Assembly (NCBI GenBank): GCA_963666565.1
Contig: OY762911.1
Location: 1,344,001-1,408,000, forward strand
Reading direction: 5' to 3'
Source: Thermoanaerobaculia bacterium
GTDB taxonomy: Bacteria; Acidobacteriota; Thermoanaerobaculia; Multivoradales; Multivoraceae
Length of the DNA stretch: 64,000 nt
Positions 40,443-53,918 of this stretch are shown in pieces. The notes beneath the pieces are model-generated. The model was given only the letters and a program-made list of their open reading frames with translations, did not search any database and was not told the origin of the DNA. How positions within the stretch are numbered: position 1 is the stretch's first letter; each line of letters opens with the position of its first letter. A program made the translations under genes and the position numbers.

Positions 40443-40751
40443 ATGATGCGGTTCCCCGAAACGGTCGAACGTCTACTCTGGGAGTACGACCTCGAAGCGC
40501 TGAGGGCGGCGCCCGAGTTGCCCGAGGTCGTGATCGAGCGCGTGATGGCACGCGGCGGCTGGGAGCCGATGCGCTGGCTGCTGTCGACATGCAGTCCGGA
40601 ACGGCGACGGCGTTTCCTGGAGGAACGCGGCTGGAAGGTGCTGCCGCCCCGGGAGCTCAGTTTCTGGGCTTTTGCCAGTTCCGTCTCTGAGGAACGGACG
40701 GCCGAGTGGGTGCGAGAGGCGCGCAAGCGCGAAGCCGCGTGGCGGGGATGA
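40443..40751 (+). CDS. small antitoxin-like partner of AbiEii nucleotidyltransferase (DUF6922-like)
   Basis: LLWEYD, VIERVMARG, FW; ATGA coupling. Confidence 0.65.
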   Translation: MMRFPETVERLLWEYDLEALRAAPELPEVVIERVMARGGWEPMRWLLSTCSPERRRRFLEERGWKVLPPRELSFWAFASSVSEERTAEWVREARKREAAWRG

Positions 40752-41404
40752 GTTCGCTTGACTGGGAGGCTCTGGAGCCGAACGCGCGCGAGGCCTTCGC
40801 CGCCGTCTCGCTGGCGTTGGCCGGGGGCGACTTCTACCTGGCGGGGGGAACCGCACTTGCCCTCATGGAGGGGCATCGAGTTTCGGTGGACCTGGATGTC
40901 TTCGCCGAGCGGCTGCGGAGCACTGAGGACGTGCTGGGCCGTCTACGCGCCCAGATCCCGGAGTTTTCGGTCACGTCGGTGAGCGCGGGCACGGTCTACG
41001 TCGAGATCCTGGGGGTTCAGGTTTCGGTGATCGAGTACAGGTATCCGCTTCTCGGTCCTACCGTGTCCTCTGGTGCTGACGGCCTGGAACTGGCAAGCCG
41101 AGACGACATCGCGGCGATGAAGCTCTCGGCGATCGCGAATCGCGGCAGCCGGAAGGACTTCGTCGACCTCTGGATCCTGTTGAGTCGCCATCGGTCTCTG
41201 GCGGAGTACCTGGGGATCTACCTGAAGAAGTTCGAAGTACGGGACGCGGGCCACGTCGTTCGCAGTCTCGTTCACTTCGACGACGCGGAACGCGATCCGC
41301 CGCTTCGTCTCCTGATCGATCTCGACTGGCAGGAGCTCAAGACCGACTTCCGGTCGCACGTTGAGAGTCTGCTGGAGGATTGCCGAACCGCCAAGCGGGA
41401 CTGA
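40748..41404 (+). CDS. AbiEii/AbiGii-family nucleotidyltransferase toxin
   Basis: FYLAGGTALAL..GHRVSVDLD, IAAMKLSAIANRGSRKDFVDL. Confidence 0.85.
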   Translation: MSSLDWEALEPNAREAFAAVSLALAGGDFYLAGGTALALMEGHRVSVDLDVFAERLRSTEDVLGRLRAQIPEFSVTSVSAGTVYVEILGVQVSVIEYRYPLLGPTVSSGADGLELASRDDIAAMKLSAIANRGSRKDFVDLWILLSRHRSLAEYLGIYLKKFEVRDAGHVVRSLVHFDDAERDPPLRLLIDLDWQELKTDFRSHVESLLEDCRTAKRD

Positions 41405-44341: not shown

Positions 44342-44523
44342 CCGCACCAGCCGGAGCGGCCGCTGAAGGCGGCTGATCGTTCAGGGAGACCGTTGGAGGA
44401 TCTGGCCTGGTCTCGGGCCTGGGCAAGCTGTGCAGAATCTGCACAGGTTCGGTGGGGAACGCGCCGGCGAGCCGCCCGCCGGGTCGGGGACTTGTATTCT
44501 GCGCCGTGGGCGGAACGCAGCGT

Positions 44524-46110
<1,587 letters not shown>

Positions 46111-46132
46111 GCCCAAGACAGGCCCGCTGCCC

Positions 46133-46561
46133 ATGATTGGCGCCGATACGACCTTCTTCAGGGAGTGTCTGGACCGGCTGGAGAGCTACTGCCGATTTCT
46201 GGACCGCGACCGCGAAGATGAAACCGACCGCCGATTCGGGCGGGAGATGTGCATCGAGCGGTTCGAGGTCGCTCTCGAACAGAGCGGCAAGCTGCTGAAG
46301 AAGACGTTGCGCCCGTGGTTCCCAAGCAACCGCGCGGTCGACCGACTGACGTTCCGGGACGCGTTCCGGCACGCGGCCAAGCACGGCCTGATCGACATCG
46401 AGGCGGCGGAGCGCTGGCTGACCTACCGTGACAGCCTGAACGGCACGGGCGATCCCGACGGCGACGACCCCGTCGTAATGGCGGCCGTCCAGCGGATGCC
46501 GGCCTTCGTCGCCGACGCCCGGGCGCTGGCCTCGATCATCGACCAGGCGCCCGATGACTGA
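46133..46561 (+). CDS. HEPN-fold nucleotidyltransferase substrate-binding protein (HI0074-like), degenerate RxxxxH
   Basis: [38 protein letters not shown]; alternative GTG start at 46097. Confidence 0.75.
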
Positions 46562-48122
46562 ACATCTCCACCTGCTTCCGCGCCACCGGGCGCAACTCGA
46601 AGCCCTCTTGAGCCAGCATCTCCCCGGCGTGGAGGTGTGGGCCTACGGCAGCCGCGTGAAGGGCCAGAGCCACGACGGCAGCGACCTGGATCTCGTGCTG
46701 CGGGGCTCCGGATTGCAGGAGATCGACCTCGATGCGCTCGCCGACTTCAGTCACGCGCTGCACGATTCGACGATTCCGTTCCTGGTCGAGGCCCGGGACT
46801 GGGCGCGGCTGCCGGAGCGGTTTCATCGGGAGATCGAGCGGGAGTATGTGGTGGTCAGAGAACCGACCAAGCATCGACCGGAACCCGCGGAGTGGCTGGA
46901 ACGCACTTGGGGCGATCTGGCGACGCTTGAGTACGGCAAGTCTCTTCGGGGCTACCGAGAAGGCACCGGTACCTGTCGGGTCTTCGGAACCAACGGGCCA
47001 ATCGGTTGGCATACCGACGCACTTGCCGACGGCCCAGGCGTGGTGATCGGCAGAAAGGGCGCCTATCGCGGAGTTCACTACTCGCCTGAGCCGTTCTTCG
47101 TAATTGATACCGCCTTCTACCTGAAGCCCAAGACGGACGATGACTTCGAGATGCGGTGGGCCTACTACGAGCTTCTTTCGCAGGACATCAATGGCCTGGA
47201 CAGCGGTTCGGCGATTCCGTCAACCAGCAGGGACTCCTTCTACTCGATGCCGGTGCAACTGCCGCCACCCCGCGACCAGCGCGCCATCGCCCACATCCTC
47301 GGCACGCTGGACGACAAGATCGAGCTGAACCGACGGATGAACGAGACGCTGGAGGCGATGGTGCGGGCGCTGTTCAAGTCCTGGTTCATCGACTTCGACC
47401 CGGTTCGCGCGAAGATCGAGGGTTGGGACACCGGATTGCCGCAAGACATCGCCGCCCTGTTCCCTGATCGGCTCGCGGACTCCGAGATCGGCGAGATACC
47501 CGAGGGGTGGGCGGTCGCAGGACTTGCCGAGTTGATTGAAATCAATCCGAGACGAGTGTTACGGCGAGGGGAAGTCGCTCCGTATCTCCCCATGGCGACC
47601 ATGCCGACTCGCGGACATGTGCCGACTTCGGTTGATCGTCGACCCTTCGGCTCGGGCATGCGCTTCGCGAACGGTGACACGCTGGTGGCTCGCATCACTC
47701 CATGTCTGGAGAACGGAAAAACAGCCTACGTCGATTTCTTGAGACAAGGTGAGGTTGGCTGGGGCTCTACGGAGTACATCGTCTTGAAGCCGAAACCGCC
47801 TCTTCCTGACCAGTTCGCCTACTGTCTTGCGCGCAGTGCAGCGTTCCGGGAGTTCGCGATCCGGAACATGAGCGGTACGAGCGGGCGTCAGCGGGTATCG
47901 GCAGCCGCGGTGAGCGGGCTCCTGACGGTCTCTCCTCCGGTGCGGCTCGTGGCCGTGTTAGGAGAGGTCATTGAGCCACTCTTCAAGCGAGCCAGTAGGG
48001 CTGCTCGTGAGTCGCGCCTGCTCTCGGCTCTCCGCGACACCCTCCTCCCCAAGCTCATCTCGGGCGAGATCCGCGTGCCGGACGCGGAATCGCTCGCCTC
48101 AGCGGCCCTTTCGGTGCAATGA
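46554..48122 (+). CDS. hsdS: MNT nucleotidyltransferase fused to type I R-M specificity subunit
   Basis: N-terminal VWAYGSRVKG..SDLDLV; then TRD1, QRAIAHILGTLDDKIELNRRMNETLE, EIPEGW, TRD2, LRDTLLPKLISGE. Confidence 0.9.
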   Translation: MTEHLHLLPRHRAQLEALLSQHLPGVEVWAYGSRVKGQSHDGSDLDLVLRGSGLQEIDLDALADFSHALHDSTIPFLVEARDWARLPERFHREIEREYVVVREPTKHRPEPAEWLERTWGDLATLEYGKSLRGYREGTGTCRVFGTNGPIGWHTDALADGPGVVIGRKGAYRGVHYSPEPFFVIDTAFYLKPKTDDDFEMRWAYYELLSQDINGLDSGSAIPSTSRDSFYSMPVQLPPPRDQRAIAHILGTLDDKIELNRRMNETLEAMVRALFKSWFIDFDPVRAKIEGWDTGLPQDIAALFPDRLADSEIGEIPEGWAVAGLAELIEINPRRVLRRGEVAPYLPMATMPTRGHVPTSVDRRPFGSGMRFANGDTLVARITPCLENGKTAYVDFLRQGEVGWGSTEYIVLKPKPPLPDQFAYCLARSAAFREFAIRNMSGTSGRQRVSAAAVSGLLTVSPPVRLVAVLGEVIEPLFKRASRAARESRLLSALRDTLLPKLISGEIRVPDAESLASAALSVQ

Positions 48123-48602
48123 GCGAGAAGATGAGCCAGGCGACAGACCACGGCGAGGCAGTGCCGGGCGGCGGGCTCGTCGTCTACGAGGCCGCGGAGG
48201 GCGGGCTCGAACGGGCCGCAACTACCGAGAATTCCTCGGTGGTTCGATCCGAGGCCGCGGGTTCGACGCTGGGTTCTCGGGCGACGAGTCGGAGCAGGCG
48301 GCAACTGCGAAGGATCTCTTCGTAGTTCGATCCGAGAGAGTCCTTGGGTTCGACGTGCGGTGACCCACTACAACCTCGACGCGATCATCTCGGTCGGCTA
48401 CCGGGTGAGCTCGAGGCGTGCGGTCCGCTTCCGCCAGTCGGCGACCCGCACGCTCCGGGAGCACTTGGTGAGCGGCTACACCCTCAACCAGCGACGGCTG
48501 GCCGAGCGCGGACTGCGGGAGGCCCGAGAGACGCTCGACCTGCTTGCCCGGACCCTGCGCGGCCGGGTGCTGACCTTGGAGGTGGACGAGGTGACATACT
48601 GA
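48119..48602 (+). pseudogene. RhuM/virulence-family protein remnant
   Basis: LVVYE.., duplicated AT....VVRSE segment, HYNLDAIISVGYRVSS..RFRQ.AT..LREHL.GYTLN; broken frames. Confidence 0.7.
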
Positions 48603-48635: not shown

Positions 48636-48821
48636 ATGGACCATACCTACTTCGTGGAGATCTCCTGGGACGAGGAGGCAGGCGTGTGGCACGTGTCGGA
48701 TACGGACTTCCCCGGCTTGGTCGCCGAGGCGGCATCGGAACGCGACTTGGTGGAGAAGATCCGAGCACTCCTGCCGGAACTGTACGATCTCAACCGGAGT
48801 TTCTTCGATGATCGGCGCTGA
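48636..48821 (+). CDS. DUF1902 / HicB-like small protein
   Basis: WDEEAGVW...DFPGLVAEA..ERDLVEKI..LLPEL; GGAGG RBS. Confidence 0.7.
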   Translation: MDHTYFVEISWDEEAGVWHVSDTDFPGLVAEAASERDLVEKIRALLPELYDLNRSFFDDRR

Positions 48822-48866: not shown

Positions 48867-50090
48867 GTGAAGGCGCCAGTACCACCCCGCGTCACGTGGC
48901 TGAAGGTGAGGAACTACAGGGCGCTGCGAGATGTGACGCTCTCGAACCTGACTCCGCTGACCGTGCTGCTGGGCCCGAACGGGAGCGGCAAGTCAACGGT
49001 CTTCGATGTCTTCGCCTTCCTGTCGGAGTGCTTCTCGGAGGGCATTCGCCGGCCGTGGGACCGACGTGGTCGGTTCCGTGAGCTAAGGAGTCGAGACCGC
49101 GGCGGTCCGATCATGATCGAGTTGAAGTACCGCGAGCGTCCCAAGACTCCGCTCATCACGTACCACCTGGAAATCGACGAGGAAAGGGGCCGTCCCGTCG
49201 TTACCCACGAGTGGTTGCGGTGGACACGCGGAAGCGGTGCCGGGCGGCCGTTCAACTTCATGGAGTACCGGCTCGGAGAAGGCGTAGTCATCACCGGGGA
49301 GGCGCCGGAGAGAAACGACAAACGGGTGCCCCGCAGCCTCGCGGGGCCCGATGTGCTGGCTGTCAGCACTCTCGGCATGCTGGCCGAGAATCCGCGGGTG
49401 ATCGCACTTCGCGACTTCGTGACGAGTTGGCATCTCTCCTACCTTTCTGCAGATGCCGCCAGAGGCAACCCGGAGGCGGGCGGGGAGGAGAGGCTGTCGC
49501 CGACGGGTGACAACTTGGCGAACGTTGTGCAGCACCTGAAGGAGGAGCATCCGGATCGCCTGGAGGAGGTGTTCGGGATCTTGCGTCGTCGCGTGCCCCG
49601 GATCGAAGAGGTCCAGGCCGAGAGCATGGCGGATGGACGACTCCTGCTTCGGCTCAAGGATGCGCCATTCGCAACGCCGGTGCTGTCTCGGTTCGCCTCT
49701 GACGGCACCCTGAAGATGTTGGCGTACCTGACGCTTCTCTACGATCCCGACCCGCCCAGACTGATCGGCATCGAAGAGCCGGAGAACTTCCTTCACCCTC
49801 GCCTCCTGCCGGAACTGGGCGAAGAGTGCCGCGCCGCTTCGGCTCGCACACAGTTGCTGATCACGACCCACTCGCCGTTCTTTCTGGACGCCCTGAGACC
49901 TCAGGAAGTGCGGGTGCTCTGGCGGGACGGAGACGGCTACACGCGTACCGAGTTGCTCTCGAAGATCAGGGGTGTCACGGAGTTCGTGAGGGAGGGCGCG
50001 AGACTCGGCGATCTCTGGATGGAAGGACACTTCGGCGTCGGGGACCCGTTGGTCAACGAGGGCGCCGCGGTCGGCGGGAGAAGCAGGTGA
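48867..50090 (+). CDS. ABC/AAA_21-type ATPase
   Basis: [36 protein letters not shown]. Confidence 0.9.
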
Positions 50091-50710
50091 CGGAGACGAG
50101 CGTGCGTCACTTCGAGTTTCTGGTCGAGGAACCGTCGATGGAAGCGTTCCTCCGTGTGCTGCTTCCACGTCTGCTGCCGCACGACCGTACGTTCCACGTT
50201 CACGCTTTCGGAGGCAAGCCTGATCTTCGGCGCAAGCTCGACGAACGCTTGCGCGGCTACTCAAAGTGGCTGCCGACGGACTGGCGAGTTGTCGTGATGG
50301 TGGACCGCGACGAGGACGATTGCCTGGTCCTCAAGGCAGAGATGGAAGCAGCGGCGGCAGCCGCGGGCCTCCGTACTCGAAGCGCGGTGTCGGCAGCGTC
50401 TTGGCAGGTGGCGAACCGCGTCGTGGTTGAGGAACTGGAGGCGTGGTTCTTCGGCGACTGGCGGGCGGTTCGCGGTGCGTACCCGCGTGTAGCGGCAAGT
50501 ACGCCGAAACAGAGGCGCTATCGCGACCCGGACTTGATCGTGGGTACCTGGGAGGCATTCGAGCGTATTCTGAGAGGGCATGGCTACTTCGTCACTGGCT
50601 TGCGCAAGACGGAGGCGGCGCGTGCCGTTGCCGCTTACATGGAGCCCTCGGTCAATCGGTCGCATAGTTTTTGCGTCTTCAGAGATCTGATTCTGGAGGC
50701 TGTGGCCTGA
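50087..50710 (+). CDS. DUF4276 family protein (TOPRIM-like)
   Basis: [37 protein letters not shown]; GTGA coupling to the ATPase. Confidence 0.75.

Positions 50711-50744: not shown

Positions 50745-53918
<3,174 letters not shown>

Follow-up and report, generated by a model that had tools for sequence, protein, structure and literature searches.

A minimal nucleotidyltransferase domain fused to the specificity subunit HsdS in type I restriction-modification operons

Type I restriction-modification (R-M) operons harbour HEPN nucleases and toxin-antitoxin (TA) cargo, and to our knowledge the wiring of such cargo to the restriction complex is understood for PrrC only. It was for the HI0073/HI0074 pair that HEPN was reportedly first proposed to be the substrate-binding subunit of a two-protein nucleotidyltransferase. 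In type VII systems, as set out in PMC11586414, the tyrosine of an RX4HXY motif is the NMP acceptor and the minimal nucleotidyltransferase (MNT) carries the motif GSX10DXD. Section 10 of PMC3710099 develops the idea that an R-M complex restrains a HEPN protein as a second line of defence, with PrrC as the example.

Here we describe an intact type I R-M operon with the gene order hsdM–HEPN–MNT::hsdS–…–hsdR, located in a 64,000-nucleotide stretch of a Thermoanaerobaculia bacterium contig (OY762911.1), hereafter the window. Its features are as follows.

44452..46110, + strand: hsdM, type I methyltransferase subunit, 552 aa (Pfam N6_Mtase, 3.8e-105; HsdM_N, 5.7e-29)
46097..46561, + strand: HI0074-type HEPN / NTase_sub_bind gene, 154 aa by longest ORF (Pfam PF08780, 1.6e-09)
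46424..46471, + strand: HEPN "Y-loop", aa 110-125, aligned to RNITSHTY of HI0074 and to RNDTAHDY of most relatives
46554..48122, + strand: MNT::HsdS fusion ORF, 522 aa, uninterrupted reading frame
46554..46844, + strand: MNT domain, aa 1-97, with G32 S33, D44 x D46, E79 and D82 (1no5 match, fold)
46839..46877, + strand: linker, aa 96-108, predicted to be disordered (pLDDT <50, AlphaFold2 model)
46896..47261, + strand: HsdS TRD1, aa 115-236 (Pfam Methylase_S at aa 113-267; AlphaFold2 model)
47268..47390, + strand: central conserved helix, aa 239-279 (AlphaFold2 model; strongly conserved across the alignment of full-length relatives)
47472..47933, + strand: HsdS TRD2, aa 307-460 (AlphaFold2 model; PADLOC PDLC03089 at aa 159-516; without a Pfam match)
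47940..48062, + strand: C-terminal conserved helix, aa 463-503 (AlphaFold2 model)
50745..53918, + strand: hsdR, 1057 aa, all domains present (Pfam HSDR_N, SWI2_SNF2, T1R_D3-like, T1RH-like_C)

The specificity subunit is encoded with hsdM and hsdR, both with full domain sets, and the HEPN gene lies inside this type I hsd operon, adjacent to the MNT. A first-pass annotation of the DNA had read about 100 N-terminal residues with a GS..DxD MNT motif running without a stop into a two-TRD HsdS, and the ORF, Pfam, PADLOC and fold evidence all agree with it: the encoded protein consists of an HI0073-type MNT (aa 1 to ~97), a disordered linker of ~12 residues that varies among relatives in both length and sequence, and a complete HsdS. 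The AlphaFold2 model of the fusion protein has a mean pLDDT of 87.2, and the modelled HsdS part contains two TRDs, each with a conserved helix after it. This part matches PADLOC Specificity_I (PDLC03089) with an E value of 6.4e-107, and its Foldseek matches include 1ydx (5.9e-18), 1yf2 and 7vs4_C. Pfam detects TRD1 only and gives no match to TRD2 at E<=1, so that TRD2 is identified by its fold and by the match in PADLOC. The MNT domain itself appears to be covered by at least one of the PADLOC specificity models.

The N-terminal domain is a minimal nucleotidyltransferase, as judged by the motif G[GS]x9-13DxD, a third acidic residue, and sequence and fold matches. The motif is formed by G32-S33 (46647-46652) and D44-L45-D46 (46683-46691). 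The domain matches HI0073 (1no5) with an E value of 5e-13 over aa 11-111, and its fold matches 1no5_B with a TM score of 0.76 on the target. The match to Pfam NTP_transf_2 is marginal (21.9 bits, cutoff 21), the Polbeta score (22.6 bits) lies under the cutoff of 26.9, and the MntA_antitoxin equivalog of NCBIfam (21.6 bits) also falls short of its cutoff of 60. In both sequence and fold, the domain resembles 8xeh/8xeo, 7bxo and 6m6u weakly. Among the 80 relatives shown, G32, S33, D44, D46 and D82 are kept in all and E79 in 79, with D in the remaining one; the motif columns are invariant in the family alignment, and E79/D82 supply the third acidic residue. The MNT is under purifying selection, fused lineages included, with dN/dS of 0.13-0.20 in all clades and of 0.14-0.20 where the HEPN loop is non-canonical. 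The domain had been taken at first pass to be an MNT of the antitoxin kind, and this assignment is borne out by its HI0073/MntA-type sequence and fold and by the HEPN gene directly upstream.

In 4 of 4 runs, drawn from 2 studies, contigs cross the junction at ~46860 without a single difference or gap (X1 record 2, X2 record 10, X4 record 21 and X5 record 25; one run may be the window's own source), and the fusion locus is present in a single copy in the genome. Together these findings rule out an indel at the junction or an assembly artefact, the latter a trivial origin that the first-pass annotation had considered. Depth rises in a spike at 47258-47405, around the central conserved helix, from other community members.

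Another trivial origin that it had considered, a one-off loss of a stop codon, is ruled out by the spread of the architecture. Of 1559 candidate protein clusters with lengths of 287-914 aa, 1357 carry this MNT domain at E<=1e-3, and 119 of the 120 clusters listed from these 1357 also contain Methylase_S (PF01420). Full-length proteins at 61-69% identity share the arrangement (P0002, P0003, P0008 and P0011), others have a tandem MNT-MNT-HsdS order (P0005, P0006, P0007, P0018 and P0067), and some relatives carry a DUF559 endonuclease-like insert. A second kind of MNT, of the Polbeta type, is fused to HsdS at L046, for which an upstream HEPN of its own is shown, and at L049 and L076. A tblastn search of a plasmid collection found no fusion; all matches, in 21 records and with identities of 33-36%, were HI0073/HI0074-type pairs that stand alone.

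Relatives of the MNT are encoded in 443 genome stretches, and our counts of fused and split forms rest on the best 80 of these 443 loci. This set spans six phyla. In 47 of its loci the MNT is fused to HsdS, and in another 9 it is a separate gene next to hsdS; HEPN lies directly upstream of the MNT in 69, and an Hsd gene lies within 4 kb in 69. Split loci are interrupted by an in-frame stop with a new start 3 nt later (L018, L020 and L027) or by a 4-nt overlap (L005-L007 and L009). The operon of the window belongs to a large type I family ordered hsdM–HEPN–MNT–hsdS–…–hsdR, whose MNT and hsdS are either fused or translationally coupled. MNT identity is 64-86% across the six phyla, which implies that the arrangement was transferred as a whole, successfully and more than once. 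On a HEPN+MNT tree, parsimony requires 18 changes of fusion state, at least 8 of which are forced by well-supported branches, and fusion state shows scarcely more clustering than expected from shuffling of the labels (a value as low arose in 37 and in 50 of 500 shuffles). Because fused and unfused forms interconvert this freely, covalent tethering is not essential and looks dispensable.

The architecture is widespread yet seemingly undescribed. Our full-text literature searches found no description of an MNT–HsdS fusion. Figure 5 of PMC3710099 bears the label "RM_TRD" and might depict such a fusion. Databases already annotate the architecture silently as "restriction endonuclease subunit S".

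The HEPN partner matches 1jog with an E value of 2.9e-4 alone and of 1.6e-12 with the family profile. As relatives are ~140 aa long, its translation probably begins with the ATG at 46133; its stop overlaps the ATG of the fusion by 8 nt (ATGACTGA). At the position of Rx4HxY the window HEPN reads LNGTGD…G, with other residues in place of R, H and the AMP-acceptor Tyr; it lacks the type VII motif RX4HXY, and AMPylation control at the canonical site is impossible here. The loop is canonical in 39 of 68 HEPN family members, and the 29 non-canonical ones are spread over several separate clades. Loop state shows no link with fusion state among these 68 members (canonical, 23 fused and 16 unfused; non-canonical, 19 and 10). 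We rejected RDAFRH (aa 87-92) as the Rx4H motif, since it aligns to FKDILRE of HI0074, reads K-x4-H in most relatives and falls within the predicted MNT interface.

A pseudogenised HEPN is ruled out by the intact ORF and by dN/dS values of 0.25-0.34 against relatives of the window's clade, where HEPN, at a dN/dS of 0.25, is under purifying selection. In the Legionella system, according to PMC11586414, R98A and H103A barely changed RNase activity and the Q44/E47 metal site mattered. The equivalent of E47 (E57) is kept in the window HEPN, so the altered loop does not prove loss of RNase function. From its sequence, this HEPN is in a non-canonical and possibly disarmed state.

Structure prediction supports HEPN–MNT binding. 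The modelled pair has an ipSAE of 0.83, and the best control has 0.41. Among solved complexes, 116 of 157 attain that mark, as do 2 of 215 mismatched pairs. Related complexes of HEPN with MNT have been solved, and the score obtained here may owe itself to resemblance to these. At least 97% of contacts are shared between the model runs, and the partner has a pLDDT of at least 80. The predicted interface involves residues 41-44 and 70-77 of the MNT, beside the catalytic Asp residues, and residues 85-112 of HEPN, a conserved stretch that includes ERWLxYRD and ends just before the Y-loop. A second conserved HEPN surface (F56 E57 L60 E61 Q62 S63 G64 K65) lies outside this interface.

The reading we favour, with a probability of about 0.5, is that the operon carries a type VII-like HEPN/MNT module whose antidote resides inside HsdS, a genuine selected chimera that in the window is in a non-canonical and possibly disarmed state. 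We infer that across the family HEPN would be a toxin-type RNase restrained by MNT binding, and that in canonical members the MNT would also AMPylate the Tyr of Rx4HxY, following type VII TA logic. The antidote would be made only within HsdS or together with it, so that neutralisation would need continued hsdS expression and would occur on the M2S/R2M2S complex. The R-M system could thereby gain an addiction or guard function, by analogy with PrrC and EcoprrI. In the window, we consider it most likely that the two partners survive as an appendage of HsdS, HEPN being bound to the MNT and either disarmed or neutralised through binding alone.

The first-pass annotation had proposed that an AMPylase tethered to the M2S/R2M2S complex could link antitoxin status to R-M integrity or might modify Hsd subunits, and its interpretation survives in part. 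The conservation of the architecture and its recurrence in other MNT subfamilies favour a functional link to the R-M complex. On the other side stand the absence of R, H and Tyr from the window HEPN, the free interconversion of fused and unfused forms, and the possibility of an internal start for HsdS. The favoured reading itself is weakened by how often the toxin loop decays (29 of 68), which is unlike a strongly selected lethal guard.

A serious but unlikely alternative is neutral hitch-hiking, in which a selfish HEPN–MNT cassette sits between hsdM and hsdS with no functional coupling to restriction and is decaying in the window. With MNT and hsdS so tightly packed, stop codons would come and go without consequence and a fused MNT would be a tolerated appendage, an account that suits the intermixing of fused and unfused forms on the tree, their difference by an in-frame stop or a 4-nt overlap, the variable and disordered linker and the frequent loss of the canonical HEPN loop. 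However, hitch-hiking does not sit well with the repeated successful transfer of the arrangement, the Hsd genes near most of the best 80 loci, or the tandem MNTs and other MNT subfamilies that are also fused to HsdS, and both the conserved catalytic residues of the MNT and the purifying selection on HEPN and MNT, even in the window's clade, argue against it. We hold it very unlikely that functional HsdS instead starts at an internal GTG (46848 or 46851), with the full-length fusion minor or unstable and unimportant. The sole in-frame alternative starts, GTG GTG (46848-46853), lie in the linker, and a Shine-Dalgarno-like GGGAG at 46840-46844 precedes them by 3 and 6 nt; split relatives begin hsdS just past the MNT end, with such sites inside the MNT coding tail. 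Yet GGGAG-TAT-GTG-GTG merely codes for E-R-E-Y-V-V, the conserved terminus of the MNT, and is therefore not independent evidence of a start, and purifying selection acts on the MNT in lineages where it is fused. Moreover, a ribosome initiating at 46554 meets no stop codon at the end of the MNT and always yields the fusion.

It is also conceivable, although we give it little credence, that the family represents a two-subunit nucleotidyltransferase tethered to the restriction complex, which would modify something other than, or in addition to, the HEPN Tyr and in which HEPN acts as adaptor or substrate-binding subunit. Its target might be HsdR or HsdM, through which it would regulate restriction; other candidates are nucleic-acid ends and anti-restriction proteins of phages. 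That the MNT keeps its catalytic residues where the acceptor Tyr is gone hints at another substrate: the active site is also intact in lineages that belong to the 29 with a HEPN devoid of the acceptor Tyr or of catalytic residues, and MNT dN/dS is equally low in clades with non-canonical HEPN. The same residues may stay for structural reasons, however, or the motif loss may be recent, and the canonical acceptor loop is still present in 39 of 68 members. The conserved HEPN surface from F56 to K65, beyond the predicted MNT interface, would suit an adaptor, and "domesticated" HEPN domains without RNase residues serve transferases according to PMC3710099.

In well over a thousand protein clusters and in six phyla, an enzyme of the antidote type is built into the specificity subunit itself, and under the favoured reading the family would offer a concrete case for physical coupling of a type VII-like TA module to an R-M complex. 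Repeated loss of the HEPN loop with retention of the transferase site leaves room for the transferase to be doing something else on the complex. If its substrate does lie outside HEPN, type I R-M systems would possess an unrecognised layer of enzymatic control or counter-counter-defence.

The closest solved relative of the MNT is found in HI0073/HI0074 of Haemophilus influenzae (1no5 and 1jog), and HI0074 is the closest to the upstream HEPN. Unlike in that pair, HEPN here precedes the MNT, which is fused to HsdS within a type I operon, and whereas HI0074 has the RNITSHTY-type loop, the window HEPN has lost it. HepT/MntA (Legionella pneumophila 8xeh/8xeo and Shewanella 7bxo) likewise combines a GSx10DxD MNT with a neighbouring HEPN gene, and most members of our family share its RX4HXY with an AMPylated-type Tyr. 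The systems differ in that the antitoxin here is within HsdS instead of being a free protein of ~100 aa, in that the toxin gene comes first, and in that the acceptor Tyr, R and H are absent from the window HEPN.

PrrC–EcoprrI, a type Ic R-M operon with a HEPN anticodon nuclease, provides the precedent for a HEPN-family protein encoded inside an hsd operon. PrrC differs in having an ABC ATPase domain and in lacking an MNT, and an HsdS fusion is not described for it; the window HEPN is a single-domain protein of 154 aa with no such ATPase domain, and coupling is predicted to run via a nucleotidyltransferase fused to S. Like canonical HsdS proteins (1ydx, 1yf2 and PacII 7vs4_C), the fused subunit has two TRDs, two conserved helices and an operon with hsdM and hsdR, to which the fusion adds an enzymatic-type N-terminal domain of ~100 aa.

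A single open frame at 46554-48122 on the forward strand encodes a 522-residue protein, and its organization bears out the claim of the first-pass annotation that a minimal nucleotidyltransferase (MNT) with an intact GS..DxD motif runs without a stop into an HsdS carrying two target recognition domains (TRDs). The gene lies directly behind a HEPN gene whose stop codon overlaps its ATG (ATGACTGA). The parts of the two genes are as follows.

46097-46561, + strand: HEPN partner of the NTase_sub_bind/HI0074 type (Pfam, 1.6e-09; match to 1jog)
46554-48122, + strand: MNT::HsdS fusion
residues 1 to ~100, + strand: MNT, with G32-S33 and D44-L45-D46 read from the sequence
residues 96-108, + strand: linker, pLDDT <50 in the AlphaFold2 model
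residues 113-267, + strand: HsdS part, Pfam Methylase_S profile match
residues 159-516, + strand: HsdS part, PADLOC Specificity_I PDLC03089 (E 6.4e-107)
residues 115-236, + strand: TRD1, AlphaFold2 model
residues 239-279, + strand: first long helix, AlphaFold2 model
residues 307-460, + strand: TRD2, AlphaFold2 model
residues 463-503, + strand: second long helix, AlphaFold2 model

The MNT part matches HI0073 (PDB 1no5; E 5e-13, residues 11-111) and, weakly in sequence, the MNT antitoxins 8xeh and 8xeo. It narrowly passes the Pfam cutoff for NTP_transf_2 (21.9 bits; cutoff 21), falls under that for Polbeta (22.6 bits; cutoff 26.9), and at 21.6 bits does not reach the NCBIfam MntA_antitoxin cutoff of 60. 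The AlphaFold2 model, computed from 82 fused homologues (mean pLDDT 87.2), retrieves HsdS structures with Foldseek (1ydx at 5.9e-18, 1yf2 and 7vs4_C), and its N-terminus retrieves HI0073 (1no5_B; TM 0.76 on target). TRD2, which has no Pfam match at E<=1 when searched alone, is identified from the PADLOC match and its fold. We regard the anatomy of the fusion and its conservation as secure.

The genome is one 4.79-Mb contig in which this MNT is present as a single copy. The first-pass annotation had singled out the junction (~46860) as the place to inspect reads, and contigs of four public runs (two studies in all) were aligned to 46000-48200. Each run bridges the junction with no differing letters and no gaps, although the four are not all independent, since one may be the source of the window itself.

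46514-47309: junction-bridging contig, run X1 record 2
46626-47309: junction-bridging contig, run X2 record 10
46796-47306: junction-bridging contig, run X4 record 21
46665-47309: junction-bridging contig, run X5 record 25, from the other study

These contigs rule out an assembly artefact at the junction.

The same alignments contain traces of other arrangements. In run X4 a single contig (depth 18.3; 30 nt on its shorter side) joins 46850 to 47286, skipping 435 nt in frame; this would give an MNT directly on the central helix and TRD2, and the contig may derive from another organism. Short fused proteins of 293-366 residues occur among relatives (protein clusters P0020, P0022, P0027, P0037, P0070 and P0102). 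Contig depth rises roughly 4-fold at 46592-46665, the conserved MNT core, in two of the four runs; across 47258-47405, which covers the central conserved helix of hsdS, it climbs 25- to over 100-fold. Loose contig ends lie at 46822 and 47277-47296, and contigs diverge at either edge of TRD1. It seems that other community members have the MNT core and central helix segments in common with the window at >=95% nucleotide identity but carry different TRD1 cassettes, a pattern that recombinational TRD exchange could produce.

The architecture is widespread. A protein database search with residues 1-112 only, limited to targets of 287-914 residues, returned 1357 clusters at E<=1e-3 from 1559 candidates. 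The combination of NTP_transf and Methylase_S domains sought by the first-pass annotation is thus common, as PF01420 is present in 119 of the 120 clusters listed among the 1357; one listed cluster is labelled ‘restriction endonuclease subunit S’ by its source. Positions 7-316 of 485 in the published PADLOC model PDLC03138 align to fusion residues 10-330, and we infer that this model was itself made from fused proteins.

Among species-representative genomes, 443 stretches encode a relative of the MNT. The best 80 of these (MNT identity 64-86%) span Acidobacteriota, Pseudomonadota, Rhodothermota, Gemmatimonadota, Chloroflexota and Ca. Binatota. Within this set the MNT is fused in frame to HsdS in 47 loci, is separate with hsdS immediately 3′ in 9, and has no adjacent hsdS in 24; a HEPN gene lies directly 5′ in 69, and at least one Hsd gene is within 4 kb in 69 (BLAST to the window's proteins). 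A one-off loss of a stop codon is ruled out by the 1357 clusters and the 47 fused loci. Beyond the conserved MNT end (…EREYVV[VL]) the linker varies in both sequence and length, and the type of TRD1 changes from locus to locus; the MNT is thus a conserved N-terminal unit carried by a wide range of specificities.

The fusion state itself is labile. On a tree of concatenated HEPN and MNT sequences (68 rows; 13 loci without a usable HEPN left out), the fused or unfused label changes 18 times by parsimony, and branches with good support force at least 8 of these changes. Shuffled labels require hardly more (mean ~21), with 37 and 50 of 500 shuffles as low as observed. Both states occur among the nearest relatives, with loci L001 and L010 fused and L003-L007 and L009 unfused; L037 counts as fused on the basis of ORF length. 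In L037 (3956-5618) the stretch matching HsdS belongs to a second ORF, out of frame with the first and overlapping it by ~160 nt, reflecting a frameshift in the gene or an error in the sequencing. In the 9 split loci with an adjacent hsdS, the two genes lie close together. Five loci have a 4-nt overlap (L005-L007, L009 and L019), seen as a GTGA stop/start in L005-L007 and L009; the overlap is 28 nt in L060; and in L018, L020 and L027 an in-frame stop is followed 3 nt later by a start, behind a GGAG-rich tail. Other variants include tandem MNT-MNT-HsdS proteins (clusters P0005, P0006, P0007, P0018 and P0067), a DUF559/MTES_1575 endonuclease-like domain inserted within HsdS (P0031, P0067, L046 and L076), and a different, Polbeta-type MNT fused to HsdS after a first HEPN–MNT pair (L046, L049 and L076), which in L046 has its own HEPN in the order HEPN–MNT–HEPN–MNT::HsdS.

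According to passages of PMC11586414, which cites the original HepT/MntA work (Yao 2020; Songailiene 2020), HEPN toxins use an RX4HXY motif whose Tyr takes NMP from a GSX10DXD MNT. The window HEPN matches 1jog at E 2.9e-4 alone and 1.6e-12 with the family profile. Its aligned Y-loop, RNITSHTY in HI0074 and RNDTAHDY in most relatives, has R, H and Y all replaced. The acceptor Tyr is certainly lost, and by the canonical criterion RNase activity has likely been lost as well. We say likely because, in the same passages, R98A and H103A hardly altered the RNase activity of a Legionella HEPN, while its Q44/E47 metal site did matter. The family profile matches that protein (8xdj) weakly (E 0.025), and in this weak alignment E47 falls on E57 of the window HEPN, a near-invariant residue, and Q44 on E54.

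Among 68 HEPN partners (67 loci plus the window), Rx4HxY is present in 39 and absent in 29, the latter forming several separate clades (10 in the window's clade, 6 in an ‘AVDG’ clade, 6 in a Rhodothermales ‘RNHTEN’ clade, and singles). Y-loop state shows no link to fusion across these partners (canonical, 23 fused and 16 unfused; non-canonical, 19 and 10). HEPN dN/dS is 0.25 in the window's clade (median of 44 pairs) and 0.16 in canonical members; the window's own pairs give 0.25-0.34, so the gene remains under selection and as a whole is not decaying.

A model of MNT residues 1-105 with the window HEPN predicts that the two bind, with an ipSAE of 0.83 (best control 0.41), a mark that 116 of 157 solved complexes attain, as do 2 of 215 mismatched pairs; these counts are only rough because our own alignments were used. 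At least 97% of contacts agree among runs and partner pLDDT is >=80, although the pass may reflect likeness to solved related complexes instead of binding of this copy. The predicted interface joins MNT 41-44 and 70-77, flanking the catalytic Asp residues, to HEPN 85-112, which may explain why the …ERWLxYRD stretch is strongly kept and would place the lost Y-loop beside the MNT active site. Outside this interface lies another patch of conserved HEPN residues (F56 E57 L60 E61 Q62 S63 G64 K65).

In the family, a toxin-type HEPN would be paired with an antidote-type transferase made within HsdS or strictly alongside it. Neutralization of HEPN would thereby be bound to hsdS expression and the restriction-modification (R-M) complex, a tie that could serve addiction or guarding. 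In the window the canonical AMPylation site is gone, and the pair is most likely a non-canonical appendage on a functional HsdS, bound and possibly disarmed, a reading to which we give a probability of about 0.5. Neutral hitch-hiking with free turnover of stop codons, a rather unlikely reading, is favoured by the frequent changes of fusion state; the MNT dN/dS of 0.13-0.20 in every clade speaks against it. A tethered transferase acting on another substrate would be in keeping with an MNT active site conserved unbroken even where the Tyr is lost: G-S, D-x-D and D82 are kept in the 80 MNT relatives compared, and E79 is replaced by D in one. We consider this quite improbable. The internal HsdS start that the first-pass annotation had raised does have a candidate, an in-frame GTG at 46848/46851 behind GGGAG (46840-46844), but the GGGAG merely codes the conserved E-R-E and is not independent evidence of a start; we retain this explanation as very doubtful.

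Further genes lie within and near the operon. Between hsdS and hsdR, an AAA_21/AAA_15 ATPase (48867-50090) and a DUF4276 protein (50093-50710) match HEC-01A (5.9e-156) and HEC-01B (2.5e-82), a candidate defence pair in PADLOC that also occurs 3′ of the fusion in L011. An 80-residue RhuM-family fragment at 48360-48602 (Pfam profile positions 22-72 of 252; PADLOC PDC-S05/S23) is apparently a truncated remnant, perhaps including 48119-48325; in L077 and L078, ORFs of 350-446 residues overlapping or following hsdS match it. A 68-residue ORF that overlaps the stop of hsdS matches no family, and 48636-48821 encodes an orphan 61-residue DUF1902 protein (4e-13) without an evident partner beside it. 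At 40443-41401 a small DUF6922-like ORF (under cutoff) precedes an AbiEii-type nucleotidyltransferase toxin (PF08843, 8.8e-18); the two apparently form a further, unrelated TA/Abi pair of the NTase type, ~5 kb upstream of the R-M operon.

HEPN–R-M linkage and HEPN/MNT toxin-antitoxin modules are already known: many HEPN clades are linked to R-M systems, and a PrrC-like second-line defence has been proposed (PMC3710099, section 10). Passages of PMC3632139, PMC4621449, PMC12839542 and PMC2701414 contain nothing on an MNT–HsdS fusion. Full-text literature searches turned up no printed account of a large, conserved family in which an MNT is covalently joined to HsdS, although such proteins are silently present in databases. 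In the MNT–HEPN dyads described in parts of PMC3710099 the MNT is almost always 5′, whereas the order in the window is reversed, and it is this order, HEPN then MNT, that makes fusion of the MNT C-terminus to HsdS possible.
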